Origin: an uncultured virus (IMG/VR IMGVR_UViG_3300031539_000016)
Taxonomy: Duplodnaviria; Heunggongvirae; Uroviricota; Caudoviricetes
Virus record (IMG/VR): IMGVR_UViG_3300031539_000016
Length of the DNA: 64,000 nucleotides
Strand: one strand, 5' to 3'
Shown here: piece after piece, positions 11,256 through 62,997 of the stretch
How the letters are laid out: the number at the start of each line of letters is the position of its first letter
How positions within the stretch are numbered: position 1 is the stretch's first letter
Notes under the pieces: generated by a model
Database searches by the model: none
Seen by the model: the letters and a program-made list of their open reading frames with translations, nothing else
What the model was told of the DNA's origin: nothing
Position numbers and translations under genes: made by a program

Positions 11256-13401
11256 ACCTATAAAGTAGATAATATATAAAGGGGGGGGATGCATGAATTA
11301 CTCAATATTACACACAGTTCGGGATAAGGGATATGAACGCAGTCCACGCACCTCAACCATTGAGGTCAGCGGTAATACTCTTAGAGTAGATGACCAAGGG
11401 CATTTATTTGTAGAATATATAAGAGAAGATGAAAAAGGAAATCAGCGCAAAACTGTGAGTGCGGTTTTCAAGGATTGGGAAAGAGCAGTGCCAGTGCCTG
11501 TGTATCCTTCTAGTGCTACTTCATCTATTTCAAGCGCTTCAAAGAAAGGACCAGGAAAATTGGTATTAAATAAGGAGAAATAATATGAAACCAAGGGGTG
11601 GAGACAAAAAACCCACTATAGAAGAAGGACCAATAAAATTACCTATTTAAAAACCAGATACCGGAGGAGAATTTAAAATGGATTACGCAAAAGTATATGA
11701 ATATGAAGTAGTTTATGGAGATCCAGGAGAAGATAATACCATAGTGCTAGAAGCAGACGAGGTTTCAGTAACTAATTCCGGATATTTATTTCTAAATTTA
11801 AATAGAAAGACTGTAATGGGATTTAGGAGATGGCAAAAATTGACAAAATTGGATGCCAGAGGAGAATAATCAAATGAGAATTAAACTAGATAGTAATGTT
11901 TTACCTGTAATAGTTGTAATACTTATAGTATTATTTCTATTTATTAATACTAATTGTGCAGGAACTCAGATTAAGCCCGTAGAAAAAATACCCGTGACTT
12001 TCATAAATGAAAATCCGGGGGTAACACAACTAGGTTTGGTTAAGTTTATAATAGATAAGAACGGAGAAAAAGTAGATTATAAATTGATGAACTTACGCTG
12101 GGATTACAAATTGTATGTAGTAGACTTGGAACCAGGGGTATACGGGGTAACCCAGTGGGCACCAGAAATAGATAAAGTAGTAGCATACCAAACGATTACT
12201 GTGGGTAAATTCCCTATGATAGTAAAATTTCAAAGGATATTCTAATGAAAATATTAAGTATGGATGAACATGAAGATGGATCAGCCACTCTAAGTATAGA
12301 TTGTACAGATGAAGAAGTAGAATTTCTAATAGGCTACGCAATAAGGGATATATTGAGAAAGTCTATAAACAATGAGAATTAAAAGGATAAAAGGAGAATA
12401 AAATGGAGTGGTTACCCGGTATAATAATACTAGTATTTATACTATTAATTATATATGTATCATGGGCAGAACGATATCATAATAAAAAAATGAAAAAATT
12501 GGCAGAAGCAAATCCTGAGCTTGTGTCACCTGTAGTTATGCCAAACGGTAGCGCACCAGTACTAAAGTGCAAATGCGGAAGGAAGATTATTATATAAATG
12601 TTTGAAGATATTTTAGGAAAAGACAAAAGATATGTAAAGACAGAAATGTGGCTATTAGGTATAAACACAGAAGATTACGAAGTAGAAGTGTTTAATGTAG
12701 GAAAAAATAATGATGGAGGCCTGGAAGGGTATATTAAGGATAGTACATATGTAATAGATAGATATACTAATTATACTATACAAATGCCTAAAACGCCACA
12801 CCATGTAATTAGAATAATAGTACTAAGAGTAAACGAACATACATTGAAATTTTACGTACCAAAGATTAAATAGATGGAGTTAATAGCTTATTTATGTGTA
12901 ATTGCATTATACTGTAATATCTTTGGATCAGGTGTTTTGTTTTTAGAATTTATCAGATTAGAAATAGCGGAGGCATGGAAAAATGTTCGAGGATCTGGTA
13001 AGACAGAAAAAAGTACCAATAGAGAAACAAATTGAAAGCTGCCCGTATTGTGGTTCTTATATCATACAAAGAAGTGAAAAAAGATGTACAATGGACGACA
13101 AATGGACTCAAAAAACAACATGTAGGTTATGTAATAAAAACTGGACTTTAGTATACAACGAAGACCAGACGCCGTCTCATATAATATTAGACAAACATAG
13201 GAAAAATAAAAAATGAGTATAGCACTAATATTGAGTATAATAGTATTTATAGGAATATGGATACTAAGTTTGGTAATATTTGGATTCACTTTTGAAATCT
13301 TCGTAATAGGAGGAGTAGTATCAGCTATACTTAGTGTACTATATTATAGATTACTAATGTATATAGTATATAAAGATAAAAAAAATGTGGAGGAATGTTA
13401 A

Positions 13402-17650: not shown

Positions 17651-18316
17651 GTGAAAATATGTTGGGATAATTTGGAAAAACTTATATATAGGCCTGTTAG
17701 GGGTGAATGGCAGAATAGGAAGCAAAAAAATACTTTCTATATTTATAAAGATGTTTGTAAAACTTGCGAGGATCCATTTTTAACACATAAAGGTAAAAGA
17801 GGAATTTTTTGCAGTAAATCTTGTGCACAAATCGGAGAAAATAATCCACAGTATAATAAAAAACGATCTGAAAAACATAGAAAAGGATTGAGCGAATCAA
17901 ATAAAGATAAAATTATATCAGAAAAAACTAAGAAAAAAATTAGTAAAGCATTAATTGGCAAAACCCCTTCTGAAAAAACAAGAAAAAAACTAAGTGAAGC
18001 GAAGATTGGTGAAAACCATTGGAATTGGCAAGGTGGAATCTCCTGTGAACCATATTGTGGTAGTTGGTTAGATAAAGAATTCAAAATGGATATAAAGGAC
18101 ATAGATAATAATGTATGCCAAAGTTGTGGTATTACAAGGATGATTAGTTTGAAAGTTTTTTCTGAAAATTTATCTATTCACCATATAAATTATGACAAGA
18201 AGGATTGTAAACCATTCAATTTAGTAACATTGTGCCGTTCTTGTAATTCAAAAGCAAATTATAATAGAGATTATTGGCAAACTTATTATATTAAAATTAA
18301 ACAGAAGGAAATTTAA
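17651..18316 (+). CDS. NUMOD3 + HNH homing endonuclease
   Basis: SEKTKKKIS / SEKTRKKLS repeats; CQSCG...IHHINY...NLVTLCRSCN. Confidence 0.85.
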   Translation: MKICWDNLEKLIYRPVRGEWQNRKQKNTFYIYKDVCKTCEDPFLTHKGKRGIFCSKSCAQIGENNPQYNKKRSEKHRKGLSESNKDKIISEKTKKKISKALIGKTPSEKTRKKLSEAKIGENHWNWQGGISCEPYCGSWLDKEFKMDIKDIDNNVCQSCGITRMISLKVFSENLSIHHINYDKKDCKPFNLVTLCRSCNSKANYNRDYWQTYYIKIKQKEI

Positions 18317-18318
18317 AA

Positions 18319-18828
18319 ATGGATAAAATTATATTATTAAATAGTGATTACTCGTTTTTAAATATTGTTGACTGGAAGAAATCTTTCGCTTTATTAATAA
18401 AGAATAAAGTCGAGGTGTTGAAATATAGCACCGGTGTGATTAAAACTGCAGCGGGTAAATTTTTGAAAGTACCATTAATTATAAGGTTAATAAAATTAAT
18501 CAGAACTATATACCGAACAAAGGTACCTTTTTCCAAGAAAAATGTACTTATTCGAGACGGGTTTAAATGTTCATATTGTGGTATGACAAAAGGTAGACTT
18601 ACGATTGACCATGTGTTTCCAAAATCAAGAGGAGGAAAATCCACATTTGAAAATTGTACCGCGGCTTGCAAAAAGTGTAATAATAAAAAAGAAAATTTGA
18701 CGTGTTTAGAATCAAAAATGTTTCCTAATACAAAATTAGTTGCTCCTACTATATCAGAATTTTTAAGAATGAAAATGCAAACACTTGGTATTGATAATGT
18801 TCTTAAAGAGTTATGGGGCGAAATATAA
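18319..18828 (+). CDS. HNH endonuclease (McrA-like)
   Basis: RDGFKCSYCG, TIDHVFPKSRGG, NCTAACKKCNNKK. Confidence 0.9.
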   Translation: MDKIILLNSDYSFLNIVDWKKSFALLIKNKVEVLKYSTGVIKTAAGKFLKVPLIIRLIKLIRTIYRTKVPFSKKNVLIRDGFKCSYCGMTKGRLTIDHVFPKSRGGKSTFENCTAACKKCNNKKENLTCLESKMFPNTKLVAPTISEFLRMKMQTLGIDNVLKELWGEI

Positions 18829-25983: not shown

Positions 25984-26511
25984 ATGGATATTCAAACAGG
26001 TGATATCCTATTAACATCTAAGAAATCCTTAATAGTATGGTTTATGAATTTATTTCAAAAGGATCCATGTTGGTGGGGGCATGTTTTGGTAGCTAAAGAT
26101 AATGTGGATGCGTGGGAATCTAATTATGTGTTGAAAGAATCAAATATAGCAAAAGTTCTTAAGAAACATAAATATTATAAAATAATAAGAAAAAAGGACT
26201 TAACTGAAGATCAAAAAGAAGAAATGCGTGAAACAGCGCCAGATCTATTGGGGTACCCATACGGTGTAGGGCGTATATTTTTGCAAATATTAGACCACAT
26301 TTTCCACACAGATTGGTTTACTAGGTTGGATGATAGAGAGTATATTCAGGTATGTTCGAGTTATGCCGCTTGGATATATAAAACAGCTTGTGAGTACGAA
26401 TTTAACGGGGTTTATTGGACATCGTGTGACCCAGATGATATAGAGGATGATCAACTACGTTATCCAGAAAGATGGGAAATTATAGGAGAACGTAGTATTA
26501 GGAGGAAATAA
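25984..26511 (+). CDS. permuted papain-like NlpC/P60 (YiiX/YebB-like) amidase
   Basis: QTGDILL, WGHV (His first), GYPY, VCSSY (Cys later). Confidence 0.75.
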   Translation: MDIQTGDILLTSKKSLIVWFMNLFQKDPCWWGHVLVAKDNVDAWESNYVLKESNIAKVLKKHKYYKIIRKKDLTEDQKEEMRETAPDLLGYPYGVGRIFLQILDHIFHTDWFTRLDDREYIQVCSSYAAWIYKTACEYEFNGVYWTSCDPDDIEDDQLRYPERWEIIGERSIRRK

Positions 26512-27092
26512 TGGCGAATTTTGAACAGGCTTATACTATTACATTGGGGCACGAGGGCGGATATGGTAATGACCCTGATGATGTTGGTGCCGAGACTTAT
26601 AAAGGGGTTGCAAGAGCTTACTACCCAGATTGGCCTGGATGGGTTATAATTGAAGCTGCTAAACGGGGACCTAATTTTCCTAATAATTTGACAAATAATA
26701 TTAATCTAAACACAATGATAAAGAGCTTTTACAAGGAAAATTACTGGAACTTGTTCTGGGGAAACCGAATCTCGAATCAATCAGTCGCAAACGAGCTATT
26801 TGATACTGGTGTTAATATGGGTGTGGGGCGTGCTGTAAAATATTTACAAAGATCTCTGAATGTGTTAAACAGAAATCAAAAAAATTATCCAGATATAGTA
26901 GAAGACGGTGTTTTTGGTTTAAACACAATGAATACTTTGAATAAATATTTAGCCACAGATGATGAATCGTTTTTACTGAAAATTATGAACATTTTACAAG
27001 GAATGCATTATATTGATTACATGACTAAAAGTTCAATACAAGAGAAATATGCACGTGGCTGGCTGAAGCGCGTGAATATAACTAAAAACTAA
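26511..27092 (+). CDS. endolysin, glycoside hydrolase family 108 with peptidoglycan-binding domain
   Basis: HEGGYGNDPDD.G.ETYKGV, LFDTGVNMG, DGVFG..T, KYARGWLKRV. Confidence 0.92.
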   Translation: MANFEQAYTITLGHEGGYGNDPDDVGAETYKGVARAYYPDWPGWVIIEAAKRGPNFPNNLTNNINLNTMIKSFYKENYWNLFWGNRISNQSVANELFDTGVNMGVGRAVKYLQRSLNVLNRNQKNYPDIVEDGVFGLNTMNTLNKYLATDDESFLLKIMNILQGMHYIDYMTKSSIQEKYARGWLKRVNITKN

Positions 27093-27168: not shown

Positions 27169-27711
27169 ATGTATACTGTAACGCAGTATAAGGTCGAAAT
27201 CAGGTTAATAAACCGTGATGGAGTAGTTGGGGTTTATCCTGATTACGATGCATTTTTGGATAGTGTTTCTTACTGGTTTGTAAAAGAACACATAGTAACC
27301 ACTTTAAAAGAGTGGCCAGTTGATTGGTATCTTAGATGGGTATTTGGGAAAAAACCAGATTTTTATATTGTAAGAGATGAGTTCGGAAGTGTTTTCACTT
27401 CCACCGAAATTCTCGAAGACAAGTTCGATAAGAATAAAAAGAAATCTTCTTTGGAACAGTGGTTTCTTAAAAAACATGATTTTACTTACAGAAAAACTCC
27501 AGTGCCTTTTACTGGAAAAAGAAAATGGAGATTTAGCAACTCTTACAAAACTCCTCGCCATGCTCAAGAAAGAAAATGGAACATGGCCCACAAGGGGTAT
27601 GTCAGAGGAAAACGAAATTCAAAATACCTTCCTGATCCTTGGGATGATTATCCAAGAAGCGATATTTATGACAAAAACTGGAAAAGACAGAGGAAAACAC
27701 AATGGAAATAA
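27169..27711 (+). CDS. basic phage hypothetical protein
   Basis: C-terminal RGKR..YLPDPWDD...KNWKRQRKTQWK; stop abuts the tRNA. Confidence 0.65.
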   Translation: MYTVTQYKVEIRLINRDGVVGVYPDYDAFLDSVSYWFVKEHIVTTLKEWPVDWYLRWVFGKKPDFYIVRDEFGSVFTSTEILEDKFDKNKKKSSLEQWFLKKHDFTYRKTPVPFTGKRKWRFSNSYKTPRHAQERKWNMAHKGYVRGKRNSKYLPDPWDDYPRSDIYDKNWKRQRKTQWK

Positions 27712-27786
27712 GCTGGGATAGTTTAGTTGGTAGAACACTAGCTTGCCAAGCTGGAAACGTGGGTTCGAGTCCCGCTCCTCGCTCCA
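27712..27786 (+). tRNA. tRNA-Gly(GCC)
   Basis: cloverleaf, anticodon loop TT-GCC-AA, GTTCGAGTC T loop, encoded CCA; one acceptor mismatch at 3:70. Confidence 0.9.
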
Positions 27787-27806
27787 TATTATAAAAGGAG
27801 TTTTAA

Positions 27807-27860
27807 ATGACATAGGTAAAACGATTAGATGGGTTGTAGATTATTAGAGGGCCTCCGTAA
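27807..27860 (+). other. amber-interrupted mini-ORF MT*VKRLDGL*IIRGPP
   Basis: AAAGGAG SD 6 nt before ATG; in-frame TAG at 27813 and 27837; ends AGA GGG CCT CCG TAA. Confidence 0.6.
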
Positions 27861-27903
27861 TTTATTTTCTTTGTAATGTTAAACATACTAAAGGAGATAA
27901 ATT

Positions 27904-28203
27904 ATGAAAACTAAAAGATTAGAACTAAAACAATGGTTAAAATATGAGAGCCTCCGAATAAAGGAAACAAGAATTAAACATAAAAATAGTCAAAGGCTGA
28001 ACAATAATAATGATTTAATGTGGCCTTTGTGTGAAATGTCCAGAGATTACAGACATCACCACATTGCTTATTCGGAACTAAGAGGCCACACAAGATCGGA
28101 AATAGAAAACCCCCGTGAAGATAATTTACCCAACGAAGATTGGATTTTATCAATAAAAAAGAAGTATTTTGATGAGCAAGAGACTTTACGTAATAGTGCG
28201 TAA
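27904..28203 (+). CDS. hypothetical protein (RHHHIAY...RG...IE motif)
   Basis: AAGGAG SD; overlaps the PTH2-like gene. Confidence 0.7.
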   Translation: MKTKRLELKQWLKYESLRIKETRIKHKNSQRLNNNNDLMWPLCEMSRDYRHHHIAYSELRGHTRSEIENPREDNLPNEDWILSIKKKYFDEQETLRNSA

Positions 28204-28462
28204 GGACTTATCAGAATCATACAGAGCTGTACAGGCTGGTCATGCGGTAGCAGAATGGCTACTACATGACCAGACCTGGAAAAATGAAACGCTAATTTAT
28301 TTAGGCGTTAGAGATGAAAAAGAACTTTCACGTTGGGCCGACAAATTAAATTTTAGAGACATTAGATGGGTTGGTTTTAAAGAACCGGATATTAATAATG
28401 AATTAACAGCTATTGCAGCTGTATGCAATGATGGAATATTTAATAAACTCAAATTATTATAA
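28172..28462 (+). CDS. peptidyl-tRNA hydrolase PTH2-like protein
   Basis: LYVIVRKDLS, AVQAGHAVAEW, F.EPD....LTAIA, C-terminal LKLL. Confidence 0.8.
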   Translation: MSKRLYVIVRKDLSESYRAVQAGHAVAEWLLHDQTWKNETLIYLGVRDEKELSRWADKLNFRDIRWVGFKEPDINNELTAIAAVCNDGIFNKLKLL

Positions 28463-28535
28463 GCGCATGTCGCCAAATGGTTTAAGGCAGCGGGCCCTAA
28501 CCCCGTAATTGGGGGTTCGAGTCCCCCCGTGCGCT
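28463..28535 (+). tRNA. atypical tRNA with CUA anticodon (putative amber suppressor)
   Basis: acceptor GCGCATG/CGTGCGC, D arm GCC..GGC, anticodon stem GCGGG/CCCGT with loop CC-CTA-AC, T arm GGGGG-TTCGAGT-CCCCC; C33 and C38 atypical, no encoded CCA. Confidence 0.75.
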
Positions 28536-28561
28536 CAATTAGCGGCTAACTAGGTATTTAT

Positions 28562-29017
28562 ATGGACAATAGTTACAAGAGAAAAAACATTTTTTTAGGT
28601 ATGAATTGCAGTACTACTGCTAGTAAATTGAGAAAGATGTTATTATTTAAATATGTCAAACTTGCTGGCCATGATATATGTTATAGATGTGGCGAGAAAA
28701 TTGAAAGTATTGATGATTTTAGTGTAGAGCATAAAAAACCATGGTTTTATGAAGATCCAAATTTGTTTTGGGACTTGAATAATGTAGCTTTCTCTCATAT
28801 GAGGTGTAATAGGCCCCACAAACAACGTGGCGGTAATAAAGGTAGTACAGACCAAAGAAAAACTTACAAAAATAAATTGTGGTGTAATAGATGTAAAAAA
28901 TTTTTAAGTAAAAATAAATTTAGCGATAACAAATATACATGGAGTGGTAAACAAAAGTGGTGTAAAAATTGTAGAAGTATTTATTACAAAAAGAAGCCTT
29001 CACTAAAGGCTCCATAA
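28562..29017 (+). CDS. HNH endonuclease-like protein
   Basis: CYRCG, SVEHKKPW, NVAFSHMRCN, C-terminal CNRC..CKNC. Confidence 0.75.
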   Translation: MDNSYKRKNIFLGMNCSTTASKLRKMLLFKYVKLAGHDICYRCGEKIESIDDFSVEHKKPWFYEDPNLFWDLNNVAFSHMRCNRPHKQRGGNKGSTDQRKTYKNKLWCNRCKKFLSKNKFSDNKYTWSGKQKWCKNCRSIYYKKKPSLKAP

Positions 29018-33741: not shown

Positions 33742-34647
33742 ATGGGAAAGAAGAAATTAGAAATAGAATTTATTAGGTCTGAATTTAAGAAAGAGGGTTA
33801 TAAACTTTTGACTACTGAATATATAAACAGTAAACAAAAGCTTGAATATATTTGTCCAAAAGGGCATAGACATTTTACCGTTTGGTCTAATTGGAAAGCC
33901 GGCCATAGATGCCCTTATTGTGATGGTCAAGGAAAACCAAGTATTAAAACTATTGGGAAGTTTTTTGAATCTGAGGATTATGAATTGCTTTCTGATAAGT
34001 ATGTAAATGATTCTGGTAAACTTTTATATAAGTGTCCTGTAGGGCATATTCATAGTATGCGTTGGGGTAATTTTAGACATGGTAAAAGATGCCCAGAATG
34101 TGATAGAATAAAAAATTCCTTGAATAAGTCTGGAAATAAGCACTATAACTGGAAAGGTGGTATAACAAAGTTTAATAAAGAACTAAGAAATTTTGTCAAA
34201 AAGATAGGTTGGACTAGTGATGTATTTAAGCGTGATAATTACACATGTTGCAGGTGTGGTATCAGGGGGAGTTATTTAATAGCTCATCACATTATACCAT
34301 TGAGTACTATAAGAAAAAAATTTAATATAAGTAGTTTAAAAGATGCTGAAAAATGTGAACTTATTTATGACGTATCTAACGGCGTTACGTTGTGTAGAGA
34401 TTGTCATAAATTGATTCATGATAAATTTTATATTAGGAGGAATTTAGGATTATGTCTGAAGAAAGAGTTGCAGGAATCGTCAAGTGGTTTGTATGAGCCC
34501 TTCGTAAGAGAAATCTTACGTCGAAATCCCTCTAATTCAGGGAAAGCCCTAACGTTTAAAGCCGAGGGTAATCCTGAGCGAAGCCCTACTAAAGGGAACG
34601 TGCAACGATCAGTGGAGACACGTAGATTACAAGCGATTGGTAATTGA
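33742..34647 (+). CDS. HNH homing endonuclease with zinc-ribbon repeats, overlapping csp exon 1 and the intron
   Basis: two Y.CP.GH...G.RCP.C repeats; RDNYTCCRCG, AHHIIP, NGVTLCRDCH. Confidence 0.85.
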   Translation: MGKKKLEIEFIRSEFKKEGYKLLTTEYINSKQKLEYICPKGHRHFTVWSNWKAGHRCPYCDGQGKPSIKTIGKFFESEDYELLSDKYVNDSGKLLYKCPVGHIHSMRWGNFRHGKRCPECDRIKNSLNKSGNKHYNWKGGITKFNKELRNFVKKIGWTSDVFKRDNYTCCRCGIRGSYLIAHHIIPLSTIRKKFNISSLKDAEKCELIYDVSNGVTLCRDCHKLIHDKFYIRRNLGLCLKKELQESSSGLYEPFVREILRRNPSNSGKALTFKAEGNPERSPTKGNVQRSVETRRLQAIGN

Positions 34648-36593: not shown

Positions 36594-37361
36594 ATGGCTG
36601 CTAAAATTATACCAATGACAAACAGAATATTTAGCAGGACATTAGTTTTGGGGCCTGCTGGTAAAAATAAACGTGGTCAATTGTTATGGGAATGTAAATG
36701 TGTTTGTGGTAATAAATTTATTACCCTTGGTGTGGAATTACGTAGGAAAAGAGTCAAAAGTTGTGGATGCTATAATAGAGAACAAAGTAGTAAATCGAAT
36801 AGGGGCAAAGGTAATCCAAATTATAGGGGCGGGGTAAAGAAGAGAAACGTTCCTCTCTATGATACATATGCTTTACAAATTTTGTGTGCGGAGAAAGTTA
36901 GGCACAATAAAAAAGATTATAGCATTCTAGAAGTTAAATGTGCTTATTGTGGTAGATGGTTTGTACCTACTATATTAAATGTGCAAAATAGGATAAAGGC
37001 ATTAAATAGTTCTGATGGACGAGAAAATAGATTTTATTGTTCTGATGGTTGTAAACTTATATGCCCTATTTATCGCAAAATTAAATATTCTGGAGATTTC
37101 ATTAAATCTATTTCAAGAGAAGTTCAACCAGAATTAAGACAAATGGTTTTTGAAAGAGATGAATATTTGTGTCAACGATGTGGTGTTGGCGAAGAGTTGC
37201 ATTGTCATCACATTACTGGGATTATGCAAAATCCTATAGAATCAGCCGATGTTGATAATTGCGTAACTTTATGTAAAAATTGTCATGAGTATATACATTC
37301 TCAACGTGGATGTACAAAATATGATTATAGATGTCATAACAGTGTTAAAGGAGAGATATAA
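36594..37361 (+). CDS. HNH homing endonuclease
   Basis: WECKCVCG..SCGC N-terminus; RDEYLCQRCG, HCHHI, NCVTLCKNCH. Confidence 0.85.
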   Translation: MAAKIIPMTNRIFSRTLVLGPAGKNKRGQLLWECKCVCGNKFITLGVELRRKRVKSCGCYNREQSSKSNRGKGNPNYRGGVKKRNVPLYDTYALQILCAEKVRHNKKDYSILEVKCAYCGRWFVPTILNVQNRIKALNSSDGRENRFYCSDGCKLICPIYRKIKYSGDFIKSISREVQPELRQMVFERDEYLCQRCGVGEELHCHHITGIMQNPIESADVDNCVTLCKNCHEYIHSQRGCTKYDYRCHNSVKGEI

Positions 37362-37627
37362 TGGCGCTGCCCGAATCTGCATTTCAAACACCTTACTGGA
37401 TTAGATATAAAGAAGGGGCTACGTTATCAAGGGACAATAAGCTGAGATTTGCCGATATGGATTTGCAATACGATAGCCAGCCTAATCGTAGTTGGAGAAA
37501 CAAGCCTCAACCGGGATATAATGCCCAGAGTCCAAGTATAACTGTAGATAGGGTTATTTTAAGTACAGATACCCCATACATTCGTGCTCGTTAGTATTGG
37601 GGTTTTTTTATTGAAAGGAGAATTAAT

Positions 37628-38200
37628 ATGGAATTAAAGGAAAGGTTAGAATTATTCAAGGAAGAACTAAATCTTATATCCAACACAGCTATTAGGGAAT
37701 TTGTGGAAGCTTGCATAGAAGCTTCTCCTGATTATGTGTTTGAGGATTGCCCTTCAAGTTCAAGTGGAAAATATCATCCACTGGACGAGCTCGGCTCGGA
37801 CGGGACGGTTCTACACACTAAACGTGTTTTTGCGTTGGCGTATGAACTAAGTAGAGGGCTTGATTGTGAGCATCATAGGGATGAGATATGCGCTGCTGCA
37901 CTTTTGCATGATATGGCAAAACGGGGGTTAACAAATCCTGTGCATACAGTAAAAGATCATCCTCAAATAATGGCTAATTTGGTTGCTGAGGTTTATAAGG
38001 AAAGATTTAAAGATAAATTGAATAGAGAACCGGCTTTGATGATTTACTATGGTATTTTATACCATTATGGGCCGTGGAGTGGGAGAGATATAAAAAAACC
38101 TCTTTCTGAATATACACCAGAAGAATTGTGTGTATATGTGGCTGATTATGTGAGCAGTAAGAAGTTTGTGCATATAGACCATAAAAGGATAGGTAATTAA
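37628..38200 (+). CDS. HD-domain phosphohydrolase
   Basis: SSSGKYHP, G..LHT, AALLHDMAK, HYGPW, ADY. Confidence 0.85.
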   Translation: MELKERLELFKEELNLISNTAIREFVEACIEASPDYVFEDCPSSSSGKYHPLDELGSDGTVLHTKRVFALAYELSRGLDCEHHRDEICAAALLHDMAKRGLTNPVHTVKDHPQIMANLVAEVYKERFKDKLNREPALMIYYGILYHYGPWSGRDIKKPLSEYTPEELCVYVADYVSSKKFVHIDHKRIGN

Positions 38201-39918: not shown

Positions 39919-42918
39919 TTGGGTAATATAGATGTTTATGATAACATAGATCTTATTATGGATCAGGGTGCTTCTATGATCCAATATTATAGGACTGATC
40001 CTGTAGCTGCAGCTTATGATCTTTTGAATATAGACTTAGCCGCTATCCAAAGAGTTATATTACGTGATATGTGGTTTAAAAGTTTTGATATAACTGTTAT
40101 GGGGCGCGGAGGAGGAAAAAGCCAAAGTGTAAATAACATGTCTTTTATTGATGGAGAAGGTTTATTTTATTTATATGAAAAATTTGATCCTATCCCCGAA
40201 TTTTTGCGTGCAGAAGAAACTTTAGAAATAAGCTCTGATAAAACTATATATACGTCAGAGGGATTTAAGCCTGTAAAAAAAGTATCTTTAGAAAAAAAGA
40301 TTGATGGGCTAAAGCTAACTACTCAATTAGGATTAGAAAATAAAGGCAGTGAGCACCACCCATTGCTCACTATTGATGAGAATGGTAATTTTTATTATAA
40401 GCAGTTACAAGATTTTAAAGTTGGTGATTATGTATGTATTCAACGCGGCCAAAGATCCTTTGGCGAAGATATTATATCAGACGATGATGCGTATTTGATA
40501 GGGTTGTTTATTGGTGATGGTATGATTAGTGATGAATATAGTCACCAAGATATAACTACTTCTGATGATTATATTAAAAGTTTTTGTACGGACTATTGTG
40601 AAAGAAATAATATACCATATAGAATAGATGAAGATAAAAGAACTGAGAGTACTATAAAAATAATATTTAAACAATTTGATTGGTTCTTTGATAAGTATCA
40701 AACTAAACGATGTCTGTCTTATTATAAAGAAGTTCCTAAGATTGTAAGGTGTGCAAATGAAAAAACACAAGTTCAATTTCTGCGAGGTCTTTTTGACACT
40801 GATGGCGGATTTGAAAAAAGAGGATCAGTCACGTTTTGTTCGGTGTCAGAAAAACTTGTAAAAGAAGTTCAAATGATGTTATTGAATTTTGGTATAATTA
40901 GTAGAAAGCGTAGAAAGAAAACAGATTCAGAATTTGGTAAAGCATTTATATTGACTATATCTGGTGAAGATATAGTAATGTTTTATGAATTAATTGAGTT
41001 TAATTTATGGCGCAAGCAAAGATTGTTAAAGGAGTATATTGAATCTAAAGAGTTTAACACTAACAAAAATATTATTCCATTTATTAAAAACACCGTTGTA
41101 AAAGAATTAGCTAATAAATATGGTAGTCAAACATCTTTCAGTAAATTATTTTCTGACAAGCGTTATAGATTTGATGACGGTAATAGAAAAAATTTGTCTT
41201 ATGCTGTTTTAAATAAAATAGTGAATATCACAGAATTGTATAATGTAGATCCTGATATATACAATAAACTGCTCAGAATACGCAATAGAAATTATTATTT
41301 TGATGAAGTAGTCTCCGTAGAGAAATGGTCTGGGGACTGTTATGATTTTGAAATGGATATGGATGTTGAGCCAAATTATTTTTCTAATGGCTTCATATGT
41401 CATAATACGTTCTTATTAGGAGTTAATGCTGTACTGCATGCACTTTTATACCCAGGATATAGAGTAGGTTTAATTGGGCCTTCTTTCCGCCAAAGTAAAA
41501 TGATCTTTTCAGAAGTTGAAAAGATTTATAATAGATCTCCTATACTAAGAGAAGCCTGTGCGAAAAAGCCTACTAGGGGATCAGACACTTGTTATTTACA
41601 ATTTAGAGGCACAGATTACTCTAATGGTAGTTTTATTGAGGCATTACCTGTAGGCGTTGATGGGGCCAAGATTCGTGGTTCTCGTTTTTATTTGGTCCAA
41701 ATAGATGAGATGGCACAGATGCCGACAGATATTATTGATTTGGTAATACGCCCTATGGGATCTGTATCACTTGAGCCTATGCAGCGTGTTAGGGAGCGCC
41801 AGCGCCAGGAAGAAATGATCAGAAAAGGTCTAGCAACCGAGGATGATTTTGTAGATGAAGGAGCTAATAAAATGATAATGACTTCATCGGGTTACTTTAA
41901 ATTTAATCATATGTGGCGTAGAATGAAATCGTATTGGAAAGCTATTAAAGAAGAAGGAGAAAAGACTAAATACGCTGTACACCAAGTGCCATACCAATTA
42001 TTGCCGCCAGGATTTCTTGATGAGGAGAATATTAAGGAAGCTCGCCGTACAATGTCTAGTATTGAATTTATGATGGAGTATGAAGCTGCTATGGTATCAG
42101 ACAGCGATGGATTTTTTAAAGCATCAATGCTTGAAGACTGTACTATTGGCAGCACTTTTAGTATACGTCTTGTAGGTGAAAAGGGTAAAGAATATGTCTT
42201 AGGCATTGATCCTAATCAGGGAGGCAAAGCTTCTTGCGGTGTGATTATAATAGAGATAGGGACCCCACATAAGATTGTTTATGTTAAAGAATTGAAGAAA
42301 AAAACTACTCAAGATATGGTTATGGAATTTCAGAATCTTGTAGATGTATTTAATATTGTACGTATATTTATGGATTCTCAGGGCGGTGGAAAACCTATAC
42401 GTGATTTGTTACAGGAAGGCTATAATAATCATATACCTATTTTAGACATGGATGATGAAACTACTAAAAGTACACAAGGCAAGCGTATTTTACAACTTAT
42501 TAATCCCACACCTGCGTGGATAAATGATGCTAATTTTGATACCTTGGCTATGTTTGAACATAAAGATATTAGATTTCCAGCACTACCGTTATCATCAGAT
42601 CCTATAGCTGAAAAACTTTATGAGGAAGTTAGGGTATTGAAATCACAATTATTAAATATAATTGTTACTCAAACCGCAAGAGGTGTAAGGCATTTTGATA
42701 CACCTAAGAAAGGCCAGAACAAAGATTTATATTCAGCATTAGTACTTGCTGCTTGGGGTGTGCGTGAAATGACTAGAGAAGTTACTGAAATTGATATAAT
42801 TTTAGAAGCTCAGGGTTTGATAAGACCGCATAAACAAGGAGCTAGGTTTAGTAAATCTGTACAAGGTTCTTCTATAAATAATTATCTAAAAGATGCTGTT
42901 TTAACTAAAATAAAATAA
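39919..42918 (+). CDS. terL: terminase large subunit with intein (about 570 aa after splicing)
   Basis: Walker A GRGGGK|T, PSFRQS, IRGSR, Walker B VQIDE, nuclease LGIDP and KDLYSAL. Confidence 0.92.
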   Translation: MGNIDVYDNIDLIMDQGASMIQYYRTDPVAAAYDLLNIDLAAIQRVILRDMWFKSFDITVMGRGGGKSQSVNNMSFIDGEGLFYLYEKFDPIPEFLRAEETLEISSDKTIYTSEGFKPVKKVSLEKKIDGLKLTTQLGLENKGSEHHPLLTIDENGNFYYKQLQDFKVGDYVCIQRGQRSFGEDIISDDDAYLIGLFIGDGMISDEYSHQDITTSDDYIKSFCTDYCERNNIPYRIDEDKRTESTIKIIFKQFDWFFDKYQTKRCLSYYKEVPKIVRCANEKTQVQFLRGLFDTDGGFEKRGSVTFCSVSEKLVKEVQMMLLNFGIISRKRRKKTDSEFGKAFILTISGEDIVMFYELIEFNLWRKQRLLKEYIESKEFNTNKNIIPFIKNTVVKELANKYGSQTSFSKLFSDKRYRFDDGNRKNLSYAVLNKIVNITELYNVDPDIYNKLLRIRNRNYYFDEVVSVEKWSGDCYDFEMDMDVEPNYFSNGFICHNTFLLGVNAVLHALLYPGYRVGLIGPSFRQSKMIFSEVEKIYNRSPILREACAKKPTRGSDTCYLQFRGTDYSNGSFIEALPVGVDGAKIRGSRFYLVQIDEMAQMPTDIIDLVIRPMGSVSLEPMQRVRERQRQEEMIRKGLATEDDFVDEGANKMIMTSSGYFKFNHMWRRMKSYWKAIKEEGEKTKYAVHQVPYQLLPPGFLDEENIKEARRTMSSIEFMMEYEAAMVSDSDGFFKASMLEDCTIGSTFSIRLVGEKGKEYVLGIDPNQGGKASCGVIIIEIGTPHKIVYVKELKKKTTQDMVMEFQNLVDVFNIVRIFMDSQGGGKPIRDLLQEGYNNHIPILDMDDETTKSTQGKRILQLINPTPAWINDANFDTLAMFEHKDIRFPALPLSSDPIAEKLYEEVRVLKSQLLNIIVTQTARGVRHFDTPKKGQNKDLYSALVLAAWGVREMTREVTEIDIILEAQGLIRPHKQGARFSKSVQGSSINNYLKDAVLTKIK
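40120..41406 (+). mobile_element. LAGLIDADG intein (429 aa) in the TerL Walker A motif
   Basis: Ser1 after GK; block B GSEHHPLL; LIGLFIGDG and FLRGLFDTDG; CYDFEM...NGFICHN followed by Thr+1. Confidence 0.93.
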
Positions 42919-52366: not shown

Positions 52367-53461
52367 ATGAAAAGACTTACATATGAATTTATAAAAGGCC
52401 GGTTTGAAAAAGAGGGTTACGAATTGTTGAGTGGAGAGTATGTAAACGCCCATAAAAAGTTGAAATGTAGGTGTAATAAAGGACATGTAAGATGTATTGC
52501 TTATAATGATTTTAAAAGAGGCAATAAGTGTGCTGTTTGTTCGTATGAAGATATGGCATCCAAACGAAGATTAGATTCGAATTATATAATTAATTCATTC
52601 AAAAAAGAGGGGTATGTATTACTACCATTTAATTATAAAAACTGTTCCCAAAAATTATATTATATTTGCCCGCAAAGACACAGACATTGTATATCATGGG
52701 CTAGTTGGCAGCAAGGTAGTAGATGTCCATATTGTAATGGTAGACCAGTTATTACCATAGATATAGTTAGGAAATCGTTTGAAAAAGAAGGGTATCAATT
52801 ATTAACTAAAGAATATATAAATAACAAGCAGAAGTTGGAATATATTTGTACTAATGGTCATAAGCATAGTATATATTGGAGTAGTTGGCGACAAGGCCAA
52901 AGATGTCCTTATTGTGCGGGGCTAATTAAGCCGGTAATAGAATTTATTAGGTCAGAATTTGAGAAAGAGGGTTATGTGCTTTTAACTAAAAAATATATAA
53001 ATGCTCATCATACGTTGTTTTATATTTGTTCAGAAGGGCATGAGCATGTTATTAGCTGGAGCGATTGGCAACAAGGTAGAAGATGTCCAACGTGCGCCAT
53101 TATAAATAACTCTGGCAAAAACCATTATAACTGGAAAGGCGGTATTTCTTGTGAGCCTTATTGTGATGTTTGGTTAGACAAAGAATTCAAAAAATCTATT
53201 TTAGAACGAGATAATTATCAGTGCCAGAACCCAGATTGCTGGCAAACTAGTAAAAGATTAACTATACACCACATTGATTATAATAAGAAAAATTGTAGAC
53301 CAAAAAATTTAATTACATTGTGCGTTTCTTGTAATGTTAGAGCAAATAAAAACAGAAATTATTGGCGGGGATTTTATAATACTATTTTATATAAAAAAGC
53401 TATGCTATTTGTACATTCAAAAGAACTGAAGCCCAAAATGAAAGCCAGTAGTGAGGAATAA
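52367..53461 (+). CDS. HNH homing endonuclease with four zinc-ribbon repeats
   Basis: four F.KEGY.LL...C..GH/RH...G.RC repeats; IHHIDY...NLITLCVSCN. Confidence 0.85.
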   Translation: MKRLTYEFIKGRFEKEGYELLSGEYVNAHKKLKCRCNKGHVRCIAYNDFKRGNKCAVCSYEDMASKRRLDSNYIINSFKKEGYVLLPFNYKNCSQKLYYICPQRHRHCISWASWQQGSRCPYCNGRPVITIDIVRKSFEKEGYQLLTKEYINNKQKLEYICTNGHKHSIYWSSWRQGQRCPYCAGLIKPVIEFIRSEFEKEGYVLLTKKYINAHHTLFYICSEGHEHVISWSDWQQGRRCPTCAIINNSGKNHYNWKGGISCEPYCDVWLDKEFKKSILERDNYQCQNPDCWQTSKRLTIHHIDYNKKNCRPKNLITLCVSCNVRANKNRNYWRGFYNTILYKKAMLFVHSKELKPKMKASSEE

Positions 53462-57087: not shown

Positions 57088-57648
57088 GTGGGTTTCAGAG
57101 ATGGTATATTAGTAGAATTAATTAAAGAAGCGCAAGCTGAGTATATAGCTGAGATCGGTGTAGGCAAGGGAAGAACTACTAGATCAATTTTAAGATCTGA
57201 ATGTAGTGCTATAGTTAAAGAGTACTGGGCTGTGGATCCTTGGAGCACAGTGTATTCAAGAGATTTTAGGATTAGAGGTACGCAACAGGATGTTTTTGAT
57301 AAACGAGCGTGGAATGTGTATAAGTACATGTGTTTTTTTCCACAACTTAAAATAGTTAGAATGCCTTCTGTCGAGGCCGCAAAACTTTTTTTGAACTATG
57401 AAAGACATGTTGAAGGAAAGTATTTTGATATTGTTTTTATAGATGCAGAGCATGATTATGATAATGTGAAAAAAGACATATTGGCATGGCACCCTTTAAT
57501 AAAAGAAGGCGGAATTATATGCGGCCATGATTATGCTTCTAGAGAGAAAGGCGTAATAAAAGCCGTCAATGAGATATACGGTGTGGACAATATAGAAGTT
57601 ATACGCCCGGGGTCTGTTTGGGTTAAAAAGGTGGAAAACAATAGATGA
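57088..57648 (+). CDS. class I SAM methyltransferase (Methyltransf_24-like)
   Basis: AEIGV..G, WAVDPW, FDIVFIDAEH, GGIICGHDY. Confidence 0.88.
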   Translation: MGFRDGILVELIKEAQAEYIAEIGVGKGRTTRSILRSECSAIVKEYWAVDPWSTVYSRDFRIRGTQQDVFDKRAWNVYKYMCFFPQLKIVRMPSVEAAKLFLNYERHVEGKYFDIVFIDAEHDYDNVKKDILAWHPLIKEGGIICGHDYASREKGVIKAVNEIYGVDNIEVIRPGSVWVKKVENNR

Positions 57649-58562
57649 GAATACTTTTGTTAGGCCCCTCATTAATAAAAAAAAGAAATATATGCTGGGA
57701 GCTTTTTAGAAGGGATCTTGGTAGATTGCATGATGTTATATATTATGGGGACGGGTATGTTGTAGGATATGATTACACGATATCTATACCTGAAGTGCTT
57801 AATAGATACCAAACACCGGACATAATACTATTACATTTACCTTGTGGTTATAAATTTTTATCAGGGTTAGAGAATGTAAAAAACATTCCTAAAGTTTTGA
57901 TACTAGGTGATTATTTCCCAGGCTCAGAATATAAATCTGATGAATTTATGAAAAAGTATAAATTTGATATGGTGTTTGGAGATCAAGGTCAAATATGTGA
58001 TAGAGTTAGAAGTAAAAACCTTTGTGCTTCTACAGAATTTTTTCATTATAGTATTGCTATGGATTTTTTCTATGATATGGAATTTCCCAGAGAATTTGAT
58101 GTGATGGCAACTTTTGCATCTAGTGGGTATATATATCCAGTAAGGCGTGCAATACGGGAAGCTCTTTATACTGAAAACAGAATAAAATCATTTATGGGCA
58201 AAGTAATTCATAAAGACTATGTTGAGTATATTAATAGATCTAAAATGTTTATTAGTGCTAAGAGAAATGAGTCTAGCAATGTATTATGGAAATTTCAAGA
58301 AGCCATGTCATGTGGGACTATGTTACTTACTACTATGCCAGATAATTTAGATGAGTACGGGTATGAACCTGATAAACATCTAGTTGTATATGATGATGTG
58401 TCTGACATGATAGATAAAATATTGTATTATAAAGAAAATGAAGATAAACGAATTAGTATAGCGAATAATGGAATGAAATTTGTTAAGCAGAGTTATAATA
58501 ATGAAGTTGTTATTGCCAAAATTACTAAAAAGATTAGTAACTTTTTAAATATAAAGGATTAG
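57645..58562 (+). CDS. glycosyltransferase (CgeB / Glyco_trans_1_2-like)
   Basis: YINRSKM, KFQEAMSCGTMLLT, YYKENED.R..IA.NG. Confidence 0.85.
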   Translation: MRILLLGPSLIKKRNICWELFRRDLGRLHDVIYYGDGYVVGYDYTISIPEVLNRYQTPDIILLHLPCGYKFLSGLENVKNIPKVLILGDYFPGSEYKSDEFMKKYKFDMVFGDQGQICDRVRSKNLCASTEFFHYSIAMDFFYDMEFPREFDVMATFASSGYIYPVRRAIREALYTENRIKSFMGKVIHKDYVEYINRSKMFISAKRNESSNVLWKFQEAMSCGTMLLTTMPDNLDEYGYEPDKHLVVYDDVSDMIDKILYYKENEDKRISIANNGMKFVKQSYNNEVVIAKITKKISNFLNIKD

Positions 58563-58565
58563 ACT

Positions 58566-59126
58566 ATGCGTGATCATGGAAGATGGTTGAAGAAAGTAAT
58601 AGAGGATTCGAATGGATCTATAAGTAAAATAGCTGAAATAGGTGTGTTTAAAGGAGATCTTTGTAAGAGTATACTGAGAACATGCCATGATCTTATATCT
58701 GAGTATTGGGCTATAGATCATTGGGATCATATAGAAGATGGGCATAGGCATATGATGGGCGGAAAATGGGTAGAGACAGATTGGGATAGGACGTATATGT
58801 ATGTTTGTAGATTGATGAGGTTTTTTCCAAAATTACACGTTGTTCGTGCTACATCAATAGAAGGATCTAAAGTATTTCCAGATGGGTATTTTGATCTGGT
58901 TTTTATAGATGCTGATCATTGGTATTATAATGCTATAGCTGACATCAAAGCCTGGTATCCATTAGTAAGATCTGGTGGTATAATGAGCGGACATGACTAT
59001 TTAGATGATGAACCTAGAGGATATGGGGTACAAACAGCTGTTAATGAATTTTTTGCAGGAAAAGAGGTAGAAATAGTAGGCGGCGAATCTAAAGTTGAAG
59101 CTGTGTGGGCACATAATAAAAAATAA
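58566..59126 (+). CDS. class I SAM methyltransferase (Methyltransf_24-like)
   Basis: AEIGVFKG, YWAIDHW, FDLVFIDADH, GGIMSGHDY. Confidence 0.88.
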   Translation: MRDHGRWLKKVIEDSNGSISKIAEIGVFKGDLCKSILRTCHDLISEYWAIDHWDHIEDGHRHMMGGKWVETDWDRTYMYVCRLMRFFPKLHVVRATSIEGSKVFPDGYFDLVFIDADHWYYNAIADIKAWYPLVRSGGIMSGHDYLDDEPRGYGVQTAVNEFFAGKEVEIVGGESKVEAVWAHNKK

Positions 59127-59150
59127 CTTTTAAAAATTAGGAGTTTTTAA

Positions 59151-59708
59151 ATGGCTAGGCGGCAAGATTGGATAATAATTGAACGATTGGGGGATATTAT
59201 TTTAAGAAATGTTGATGGGCATATATTTGAGATAGGGGTTGGGTTTTCAACTCCTATCCTTAGTAACCTAGCATCTGATTTTGATAGAAATCTTTATTGC
59301 TTTGAGACTAGTGAAAAAATGTGTAATTTGGCAAAGGCGTTTGGTGCTACGGTGTTTCAAGGAAAGTCCTTGGCTAATATTGAAAAACTTTCAGAAACTA
59401 CTATAGCTATGGGTTTAATTGATGGAAGGCATAGAGCTGGTACGGTGAGAGCTGAGATTTCTTTTTTTCTGAAGAGATTATCGACTGGTGGAGTAATTTT
59501 TTTGCATGATACTTATAGTTGTAAATCACCGATTTTAAAATCAGCTAAAAATTTTACAGAAAAAATGATAGGTGATGTTTATAAAATTAGAAAGGAATTA
59601 GAGTCTTTGGATACTATACAAATTTTTACATGGCCATATACAGCTATGAATTGTGGTCTAAGTATGGTAATGAAAATGGATCCAGACAGACCCTATTATG
59701 AAATGTAA
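59151..59708 (+). CDS. class I SAM methyltransferase
   Basis: FEIGVGFST, LIDGRH, GGVIFLHD. Confidence 0.8.
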   Translation: MARRQDWIIIERLGDIILRNVDGHIFEIGVGFSTPILSNLASDFDRNLYCFETSEKMCNLAKAFGATVFQGKSLANIEKLSETTIAMGLIDGRHRAGTVRAEISFFLKRLSTGGVIFLHDTYSCKSPILKSAKNFTEKMIGDVYKIRKELESLDTIQIFTWPYTAMNCGLSMVMKMDPDRPYYEM

Positions 59709-60214
59709 TGAAACTTTGGGTACCTTTAATAAATCTTATAAAAGAAGAGAATTTTAAGAAGGTTGCAGAAATAGGTGTTCATAAAGGTGTAACAACTGCA
59801 CATATATTTGATTCATGTGGCGATGTAATTGAAGAATATTGGGCTATTGATCCTTTTGTTCCTTATGAACAGATGAGAGCCGATTGGGACGAGTTGTATA
59901 AAAATATTTGTTCTGGTATGATTAAGTATCCCAAACTAAAAGCTTTAAGACTCAAATCAGCTGAAGCTGCTGAATTATTTCCAGAACAATATTTTGATCT
60001 AGTTTTTATAGACGCTGATCATTCTTATGATGCTATTAAAGAAGATATACGTTTGTGGAAGCCTTTAGTTAGAAAAGGCGGTATACTTTCTGGCCATGAC
60101 TATAAAGCTGGCGGGAAATTTCCATTTTGGGGGGTTAAAACAGCAGTAGATGAAATATTTGAGCCCGAAGAAATAGAAACTCTTCCTTGTAGAATTTTTG
60201 TAGTGAGGGTATAA
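59708..60214 (+). CDS. class I SAM methyltransferase (Methyltransf_24-like)
   Basis: AEIGVHKG, YWAIDPF, FDLVFIDADHSY, GGILSGHDY. Confidence 0.88.
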   Translation: MKLWVPLINLIKEENFKKVAEIGVHKGVTTAHIFDSCGDVIEEYWAIDPFVPYEQMRADWDELYKNICSGMIKYPKLKALRLKSAEAAELFPEQYFDLVFIDADHSYDAIKEDIRLWKPLVRKGGILSGHDYKAGGKFPFWGVKTAVDEIFEPEEIETLPCRIFVVRV

Positions 60215-60215
60215 G

Positions 60216-60743: not shown

Positions 60744-60757
60744 GGGGATATTTATAG

Positions 60758-62981: not shown

Positions 62982-62997
62982 GAGGAGTAGATTAAGA

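Follow-up and report, generated by a model that had tools for sequence, protein, structure and literature searches.

When a ribosome pauses on the leader of secM-secA or ermCL-ermC, it unmasks the ribosome-binding site of the next gene, and in prfB a +1 frameshift at an in-frame UGA inside the regulated gene senses release factor 2 (RF2). The bar minigenes of lambda cause peptidyl-tRNA drop-off, which starves the host of a tRNA. Here we describe a cassette that brings such elements together in a 64,000-nucleotide (nt) stretch of DNA from an uncultured virus of the Caudoviricetes (IMG/VR IMGVR_UViG_3300031539_000016), the whole of which is called the window below. It consists of a leader mini-open reading frame (mini-ORF) broken by in-frame TAG codons, a gene for a helical protein named HIAY, an overlapping gene for a PTH2-like protein (PTH2L) and a tRNA with the anticodon CUA. 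Among described systems, PepNL of E. coli is a natural mini-ORF in which stop read-through and arrest interact (PMC11890864), and in synthetic switches for unnatural amino acids (Uaa) charged tRNA-CUA-dependent translation of a leader past UAG turns on genes, with multiplexed UAGs raising the gain (PMC6412442). Recoded phages carry a code-change module of suppressor tRNA, aminoacyl-tRNA synthetase and release factor near their lysis genes (Borges et al., 10.1101/2021.08.26.457843), and PTH2 has been reported in jumbo phages, with ribosome rescue as the proposed role (Iyer et al. 2021). Neither 'hydrolase' nor 'leader' is used in the accessible text of that preprint (0 occurrences each), nor is 'suppressor' in that of Iyer et al. 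2021 (0 occurrences). An earlier note on this DNA, made from the sequence alone, had known of no described system with such a layout, and our full-text literature searches, supplements aside, likewise found no such natural system.

We consider it likely that the leader senses suppression, as the contest of the charged suppressor tRNA with release factor, that it then pauses the ribosome and opens a hairpin, and that HIAY and after it PTH2L are translated as a result. The strongest result is a match between leader and tRNA: where the linked tRNA has another anticodon, the leader has the corresponding other stop, though non-amber cases are few. What we report as observation, in turn below, is how the cassette is built and conserved, the statistics of its hairpin, the agreement of leader codon and tRNA anticodon, the PTH2 fold and the existence of fusion proteins. 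The layout given in the earlier note was recovered element by element from the sequence, ARAGORN and Rfam, as follows.

27712-27786, + strand: tRNA-Gly(GCC), the upstream boundary of the cassette (ARAGORN; Rfam tRNA 61.6 bits)
27794-27800, + strand: Shine-Dalgarno (SD) sequence of the leader, AAAGGAG, read from the sequence, 6 nt 5' of the leader ATG
27807-27860, + strand: leader mini-ORF, ATG at 27807 and TAA at 27858-27860, 17 codons plus the stop when TAG is read through
27813-27815, + strand: first in-frame TAG (codon 3), next base G
27837-27839, + strand: second in-frame TAG (codon 11), next base A
27846-27857, + strand: codons for R-G-P-P, a RAPP-like arrest motif, immediately 5' of the leader TAA
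27856-27906, + strand: predicted hairpin, 5' arm 27856-27875, 3' arm 27887-27906
27890-27897, + strand: SD of HIAY (AAAGGAGA), wholly paired inside the predicted hairpin
27904-28203, + strand: HIAY ORF, 99 amino acids (aa), all-helical model, no known family
28172-28462, + strand (ATG; TTG at 28169 as an alternative): PTH2L ORF, 96 or 97 aa, overlapping the end of HIAY by 32-35 nt
28463-28536, + strand: suppressor-type tRNA-CUA, with 0 nt between it and the PTH2L stop (ARAGORN; Rfam tRNA 57.8 bits, gathering score 29)

About 190 related loci were gathered from viral, metagenome and genome collections; the metagenome set and the PTH2L-anchored IMG/VR set comprise 80 loci each, among the matches listed. 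The counts given throughout are of loci that share descent and are not phylogenetically independent, many leaders missed by the detector were judged by eye, and for most related loci the DNA stretch is too short to tell a recoded from a standard code. Searches of IMG/VR with HIAY or PTH2L returned loci at 31-84% protein identity in which the order HIAY, PTH2L, CUA tRNA is repeated. PTH2L overlaps the end of HIAY in 13/13 sources and, under translation table 11, the tRNA starts 0-9 nt after the PTH2L stop in 9/13. The CUA tRNA lay within the retrieved DNA in 25 of 30 distinct HIAY-anchored IMG/VR loci, in 66/80 PTH2L-anchored IMG/VR loci and in 50/80 metagenome loci, many of which are short contigs. 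In close relatives the same tRNA-Gly(GCC) also stands 5' of the leader. Collecting homologues and reading through TAG upstream of them, as the earlier note had proposed, returned conserved TAGs, ends of the R-A/G-P-P type and a linked CUA tRNA, so that the cassette recurs and homologous loci do not, as a body, lack the SD, the TAGs, RGPP or the tRNA. GenBank phages gave no match to HIAY and, beyond tRNA matches, no relative of the region. DNA of the region is present in soil and sediment metagenome runs from several studies; two RNA-labelled runs held only contigs of 90-95% relatives, over 27672-27971 and 27878-28224, which do not show transcription. Two further matches from the genome scan (L052, L053) were spurious and were discarded as cassette loci.

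The leader was sought with two patterns. The strict one asks for an SD, a start codon, at most eight codons, TAG, at most 16 residues and then PP, SP or GP with a stop, and the relaxed one for an SD-like motif and a basic residue followed by PP, an immediate stop not being required. In the window, with both strands scanned, the strict pattern has a single match, at 27807. In the 400 nt 5' of HIAY it was found in 19/30 distinct loci and the relaxed pattern in 27/30, and there were 0 matches in the 263,832 nt of related loci outside those upstream stretches. A detector with a wider SD found the leader in 31/32 sources, 62/80 metagenome loci and 39 of the 63 PTH2L-anchored IMG/VR loci that bear HIAY. 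Two of the 18 metagenome misses have no upstream DNA; the remaining 16 have, by eye, a stop-bearing leader ending in Pro-Pro-stop and went undetected because of a weak SD, greater length or the lack of a start of their own. Most of the 24 IMG/VR misses also have leaders by eye, with TAG at codons 10-13. Taken together, almost all loci whose DNA reaches far enough upstream have a leader of this kind.

Seventy-six unique leaders were found algorithmically, 48 with two TAGs and 28 with one. In 56 of them codon 3 is the first TAG, and in many loci it stands elsewhere, at codons 4-13. The base 3' of an in-frame TAG is a purine in 122/124 cases, compared with 55% purines in the window. Among the 76, the end is RGPP in 28, x-K-P-P in 29 and RSPP in six, the rest being related motifs; a basic residue 2-3 positions before PP is conserved, and the PP motif is directly followed by the stop in 53. 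Pro codons vary at the third position, the second leader codon is not fixed (18 different codons), and ATG, TAGs and PP-stop always keep one frame despite leader lengths of 8 to more than 20 codons, the indels being in multiples of three. These frame-level signatures (the TAG position, the purine that follows it and the Pro third-position variation) point to a translated frame and not to an RNA motif; Rfam has no family match to the leader region. The earlier note had taken RGPP for an arrest motif, which agrees with the report that RGPP and RAPP are the strongest arrest cores, context-tolerant and refractory to elongation factor P (EF-P), RSPP and RDPP being partly permissive (Fujiwara et al. 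2025, PMC12992588). Poly-Pro C-termini slow termination, and the base after UAG affects release factor 1 (RF1) (Kato 2019, PMC6412442). Leaders from the closer relatives of the window (L055, L064, L072, L076, L084 and others) show before the second TAG a conserved series of a basic residue, a hydrophobic residue, Asp, any residue, Gly and often Leu, which may tune termination against read-through there.

The window tRNA folds into a cloverleaf whose anticodon, CUA, is complementary to the leader stop (ARAGORN, Rfam), and TAG leaders paired with a CUA tRNA are found in dozens of loci. In one locus (L121) the anticodon is UUA, and the leader (L121:1363-1389), preceded by a strong SD, reads Met-Thr-TAA-Ile-Phe-Lys-Pro-Pro-TAG. 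The PTH2L of this locus starts Met-Gly-His-TAA, with the in-frame TAA at codon 4, and 3' of this TAA no separate start is available for the conserved N-terminus. This phage is not recoded, as five of the eight other ORFs of the locus end in TAA; no relatives of this ochre-type locus were found in IMG/VR. Three loci (L168, L187, L194) carry a tRNA-UCA, and their leaders have TGA at codon 5 or 7, followed by Thr-Arg-Asn-Lys/Arg-Gly-Pro-Asp. In these three and their relatives no SD was seen before the leader or the partner gene. Six loci (L195, L198, L199, L209, L211, L193) have the same gene set as the opal loci but a tRNA-CUA, and there the leaders carry TAGs. When the detector was set to TAA or TGA it found 0/63 in HIAY-bearing CUA-type loci, and no mismatched pair of leader stop and anticodon was seen among the loci examined. 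The co-variation (TAA/UUA, TGA/UCA, TAG/CUA) goes beyond what the earlier note had predicted. The linked suppressor-type tRNAs are very diverse (112 unique sequences), and their identity, read from the 1:72 pair and the discriminator base, is unreliable because ARAGORN 3' ends vary.

The window itself uses the standard code, as the earlier note had held. A greedy ORF map under translation table 11 has 121 ORFs at 93% coverage, with 84 TAA, 21 TAG and 16 TGA stops, and judged by the criteria for code 15 the window does not qualify as recoded.

Some unusual RNAs stand near the cassette in related loci. Phage-borne genes for transfer-messenger RNA (tmRNA) lie at most 2 kb from it in two loci (L051, 3739-4097; L195, 287-637); such neighbours fit a rescue theme, and they may only reflect tRNA-cluster neighbourhoods. 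Two cassette contigs (L050 and L051, of which one measures 427 kb) are assigned to archaeal metagenome-assembled genomes of the Thermoplasmatota. The tmRNA gene is a bacterial feature and L051 carries one, which suggests mis-binned phage DNA. In L034 (459-532) ARAGORN also reports a tRNA whose anticodon has four bases (cttg), and in six metagenome loci (L061, L065, L069, L070, L071, L082) it reports, beside tRNA-Gly genes, tRNAs whose anticodon has two ('cc'); such tRNAs may be frameshift-suppressor-like or simply odd.

Between the arrest motif and HIAY the minimum-free-energy (MFE) and centroid structures of the window both pair 27856-27875 with 27887-27906. Besides the last Pro codon and the leader stop, the 5' arm takes in another 15 nt, and the 3' arm holds the SD and AUG of HIAY. 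Folded alone, this segment has an MFE of -17.9 kcal/mol (z -6.2), and 0/200 shuffles were as stable. In predicted folds the relatives keep the same hairpin geometry although their sequences differ: the segment from the Pro codons to the AUG has z < -2 against shuffles in 30/31 loci (median -3.9), the L121 hairpin has z -4.06, and in the opal-type loci a hairpin (z -2.75) begins at the leader end and stops shortly 5' of the AUG of the following gene. The SD core is fully paired with an upstream arm in 20/31 loci and at least 75% paired in 27/31, compared with full pairing in 2/55 control genes of the window; full pairing together with an MFE of -11 kcal/mol or lower occurs in 20/31 loci and in 0/55 controls. 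The SD partner lies -6 to +11 nt from the motif end, and at +22 in one locus, which in these models places it inside or beside the footprint expected of a ribosome stalled at the Pro codons. The motif end is 46-87 nt before the AUG and is therefore too far away for steric blocking. On the + strand no terminator-like site and no stem with a T-run was seen in 27787-27925, and the scan for promoters and terminators was otherwise uninformative. The predicted hairpin, whose 5' arm starts at the arrest site, had not been anticipated in the earlier note.

HIAY has no match in Pfam or PHROG. Its 34 close homologues are all named hypothetical, and a profile search gave 1513 cluster representatives at E<=1e-3, 761 of them at <=1e-10. 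The AlphaFold2 model (predicted local distance difference test, pLDDT, 90.6) is a long helical hairpin with short helices, for which Foldseek found no match in the PDB at E<=0.001 and the ESM Atlas had no usable match; a wide VIA-align comparison returned generic helical-hairpin matches only (Z <= 6.9). PTH2L scores 15.7 bits against Pfam PTH2 (PF01981; E 0.018), below the cut-off of 23, and matches phrog_3668 at 9e-12. A profile of 22 members matches Pth2 entries of the PDB (24bt_A, 1.9e-6; 2zv3_A, 2.5e-4; 1rzw_A, 6.6e-4), and with the model (pLDDT 92.5) Foldseek found 2zv3 at 4e-6 and also 3erj, 1wn2, 1xty and 1q7s, with template-modelling (TM) scores of 0.75-0.81 and probability 1.00; the structural matches are archaeal and human Pth2. 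From profile and fold together, PTH2L is a divergent member of the PTH2 superfamily. Its invariant R10, Q21, H24, D73 and T79 align with conserved PTH2 stretches in a sequence-level profile alignment.

Single-chain HIAY-PTH2L fusions exist in nature. In one of them (P0070) residues 1-96 are HIAY (1e-15) and residues 103-197 PTH2L (8e-28). The fusions, which the earlier note had not foreseen, and the gene overlap indicate from sequence that HIAY and PTH2L belong together. A complex prediction for the two scored 0.02, which speaks neither for nor against binding. Peptidyl-tRNA recycling by the PTH2-like enzyme, as the earlier note proposed, is compatible with the modelled fold. Three roles may be considered for the pair, namely peptidyl-tRNA clearance or ribosome rescue, release of the arrested leader as feedback, and negative feedback on the suppressor.

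The cassette is also wired in other ways. HIAY itself carries the TAG, as its third codon, in L007; in L049, L103, L157 and L166 the leader has the form of an ORF, the preceding one, prolonged by read-through, and in L012 and L029 the leader continues into or up to the HIAY start. Loci without HIAY have in its place a small protein with a Y-[CV]-A-Y-Y motif (AYY), which we treated as unrelated or undetectably related to HIAY because the hhalign probability was 0.2%. In L193, L211, L192 and L154 the AYY partner and PTH2L lie in one frame, split by TAG alone. Exactly one in-frame TAG is present in 32 of 144 unique PTH2L genes, compared with TGA in 0 and TAA in one, which supports indirectly that the tRNA may be charged and may decode UAG. 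Of 31 mapped PTH2L TAGs, 22 fall in three adjacent columns of a variable loop, a count that shared descent may inflate, and since these columns are variable they do not reveal the inserted amino acid. As judged from the reading frames, the PTH2-like protein in these wirings would be made only upon stop suppression.

These elements suggest the following course of events. The leader would be well initiated but is broken by one or two stops cognate to the suppressor tRNA of the same cassette. Where release factor wins, translation would end at codon 3 or 11, a long way short of the hairpin; HIAY would keep its SD and AUG paired and the operon would be off. Where the suppressor is present, charged and competitive, ribosomes would read through to the terminal R-G-P-P-stop at the foot of the hairpin; arrest or slow termination there would keep the 5' arm unwound, so that the freed SD and AUG allow HIAY to be translated and the overlapping PTH2L by translational coupling. 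Two serial stops would give a steeper and less leaky response. HIAY and PTH2L may act jointly as a two-part enzyme of the PTH2 superfamily, whose likeliest job would be peptidyl-tRNA hydrolysis or ribosome rescue, problems that arise from global read-through; the arrested leader complex itself is possibly among its targets. The conserved leader, its TAGs, the R-G-P-P-type end and the linked CUA tRNA support the suppression sensor that the earlier note had proposed.

Several points weigh against a suppression sensor. The anticodon loop of the window tRNA-CUA (28495-28501) reads C-C-CUA-A-C, with C and not U at position 33. U33 is near-universal in tRNAs; C33 also occurs in 9 of the 112 unique suppressor tRNAs of related loci. 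The non-amber cases amount to one UUA locus and three UCA loci that are mutually related. No Pro-Pro leader was seen by eye in four loci (L177, L178, L200, L206), and some loci have no good SD (L041, L168). The motif is not immediately followed by a stop in 23/76 leaders, where ribosomes may translate through the hairpin, and about 29 of the 76 end in x-K-P-P, for which no arrest report was found. Some relatives are probably TAG-recoded, as an in-frame TAG in the PTH2L of L005 and L018 suggests, and in those phages the leader TAG is therefore less special. The function assigned to the products is weak, because a general peptidyl-tRNA hydrolase would not obviously need strict gating. The structures are MFE predictions and the whole analysis is computational; from it we infer initiation at 27807, read-through, arrest, opening of the hairpin, the direction of regulation and the substrate of the enzyme.

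Could the leader be a bar-type minigene, a Met-Thr-stop ORF behind a strong SD that causes peptidyl-tRNA drop-off and starves the host of a tRNA, with the PTH2-like enzyme giving the phage control over the effect or immunity to it? The first stop is indeed codon 3 in 56/76 unique leaders, the SD is strong, and a gene with a peptidyl-tRNA-hydrolase fold lies downstream. However, the in-frame second TAG, R/K-x-P-P, the stop and the hairpin foot are conserved and would have no use were translation to stop at codon 3 every time, many loci have the first stop at codons 4-13, 18 different second codons occur, and the leader stop co-varies with the linked suppressor tRNA. The lambda-bar analogy drawn in the earlier note therefore gives a poor account of the conserved downstream part, and we regard a minigene as quite improbable. 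A reversed or different output, in which read-through represses HIAY and PTH2L or acts on transcription or tRNA processing (for example through Rho or RNase access), so that the leader would set the level of the tRNA and not of protein, is improbable too, if marginally less so. The tRNA adjoins the last stop of the operon (0-9 nt in 9/13 sources) and is therefore probably co-transcribed, and control of transcription by leader peptides is a familiar mechanism (trp, tna; PMC6412442). Against such an output, the conserved hairpin engages the SD and AUG of the following gene and is not a terminator, no stem with a T-run coming after it on the + strand, the distance of 46-87 nt from arrest site to AUG is beyond steric blocking, and in L045 and L121 the tRNA stands upstream of the leader.

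It might also be that nothing is sensed, the leader being only a coupling ORF or a small protein in phages for which TAG is a sense codon, its TAGs a reflection of general recoding, and its PP codons an anti-SD (CCUCC) needed at the RNA level. The probable recoding of some relatives, with in-frame TAG in PTH2L, would suit this explanation, as would the several loci in which the Pro-codon CCUCC itself pairs with the SD. Yet the window and L121 are not recoded and retain a stop-bearing leader, the TAG stands at codon 3 with a purine directly 3' of it in 122/124 cases, the basic residue 2-3 positions before PP is conserved, and Pro-Pro is kept both where its codons are poor anti-SDs (CCA CCA, CCG CCA) and where the SD has its partner in another stretch, 3' of the stop; we give this explanation as little credence as the minigene. 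Least probable of all, and very much so, is an untranslated RNA structure or protein-binding site in which the apparent ORF is coincidental. The hairpin is strong and conserved, and translation of the leader is a prediction from sequence. Nevertheless, start, internal stops, PP and end stop keep frame over 8 to more than 20 codons with indels in threes, the Pro third positions vary, and Rfam has no match.

A suppression sensor, which we prefer, can be extended in a tentative and, as we see it, rather unlikely way: the cassette may be a portable homeostat of the state of the genetic code, made of a suppressor/release-factor sensor, a hydrolase targeted by its partner, and feedback. The leader would gauge suppressor against release factor at the cognate stop, with matched versions for all three stops; the HIAY or AYY partner would steer the hydrolase to the acylated or peptidyl form of the suppressor or to the arrested leader complex; and the enzyme would feed back on suppression and on its own synthesis, as SecM monitors SecA. 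If this were true, standard-code phages could carry an otherwise dangerous suppressor, and the cassette would be a missing control element for the switch from standard to alternative code during infection.

The window appears to be part of a phage genome, with 36% GC and nearly all genes on the + strand. Matches include a head maturation protease, a major head protein, a terminase-like ORF, a deoxynucleoside monophosphate (dNMP) kinase and many HNH endonucleases. The cassette lies directly 3' of an amidase-like gene and a GH108 endolysin (25984-27092) and of a 180-aa ORF, and its tRNA-CUA is followed by an HNH gene, tRNA-Gly(UCC) and tRNA-Gln(CUG). At least six genes of the HNH or homing-endonuclease type lie in the 64 kb, among them 17651-18828, 28562-29017, 33742-34647, 36594-37361 and 52367-53461; as one stands directly 3' of the tRNA-CUA, the cassette may sit in a mobile, mosaic region. 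Three same-frame ORF pairs are split by TAG (+0-33 nt): 12598/12874, 37361/37628 and 57645/58566 (spans 12598-13035, 37361-38200 and 57645-59126). They are possible read-through clients of the suppressor, though their number is at chance level among 21 TAG-ended ORFs; the second ORFs have starts of their own, and 58566-59126 belongs to a stand-alone paralogue family. This family comprises five tandem ORFs of about 170-186 aa (57088, 58566, 59708, 60216, 62998; span 57088-63537) that match the same part (about 305-470 of 599) of phrog_2675, labelled 'DNA methyltransferase'. A 999-aa ORF (39919-42918) combines helicase-like and large-terminase-like matches and is unusually long for a terminase; considered as a TAG-gated gene, it was ruled out by a good SD and a TTG start of its own.

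Phages that carry suppressors or reassign stops must alter stop reading in the infected cell within minutes. The expected code-change factors are often not found (Borges et al., 10.1101/2021.08.26.457843). The cassette offers a concrete control element, a natural leader that would report suppression efficiency and is tied to a dedicated enzyme pair. If the sensor is real, regulation by arrest peptides extends to a new input, the competition of release factor with suppressor tRNA, and the large unannotated HIAY family (1513 clusters) gains a function. The cassettes may also provide synthetic-biology parts, as orthogonal, matched amber, ochre and opal sensors, and a sequence signature by which phages that interfere with stop codons can be recognised although their genomes are not visibly recoded.

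Among known systems, the leader resembles the RAPP-type arrest peptides (ApdA, ApdP, ApcA, and SecM with RAGP) upstream of sec, yidC and other genes, which likewise are short ORFs ending in R-A/G-P-P in the orientation of the next gene, and whose paused ribosome is likewise thought to open a structure that hides the next ribosome-binding site (PMC12992588, PMC10951233). The window has the terminal R-G-P-P core and a same-strand gene with a ribosome-binding site predicted to be masked; the signal or transmembrane segment of that class is absent, as 17 codons including two stops leave no room for it. Known RAPP-type members are secretory or membrane proteins relieved from arrest by the pulling force of the localisation machinery, whereas this leader has in-frame stops and, it seems, regulated access to the arrest site, and about 29 of 76 leaders have x-K-P-P. 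The design of hairpin and leader is that of secM-secA or ermCL-ermC. As in trpL, hisL and the T-box, tandem diagnostic codons would report one charged tRNA and set linked genes (PMC6412442); here, unlike there, the diagnostic codons are stops, suppressor is set against release factor, the output would be SD unmasking, and no terminator was found. With prfB the cassette shares an early in-frame stop that gauges termination against alternative decoding, and it differs in its separate leader, decoding by a suppressor tRNA and arrest motif. The synthetic Uaa switches share the design principle but are engineered; the cassette is natural and widespread in phages, has its own tRNA, and adds putative arrest with SD unmasking. 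The logic of PepNL is opposite, since here read-through of an internal stop is needed to reach the arrest site. Like the code-change module, the cassette is compact, centred on a suppressor tRNA and, in the window, 3' of an endolysin; unlike the module, it lacks synthetase and release factor, has a PTH2-like gene, a partner protein and a sensing leader, and stands in a standard-code phage. PTH2L is shorter than the PTH2 of jumbo phages and forms a divergent branch below the Pfam cut-off. The likeness to lambda bar and Pth lies in two codons and a stop behind a strong SD and in a linked peptidyl-tRNA hydrolase homologue; in bar-type minigenes nothing would be conserved beyond the stop, whereas in the relatives of this leader the in-frame part 3' of the first stop is conserved, as is the agreement with a suppressor tRNA, neither of which is known as a bar feature. 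The arrest core, the SD-masking hairpin and the diagnostic leader codons are therefore of known kinds, and what is new is the quantity sensed, the matched tRNA and the gated enzyme pair.

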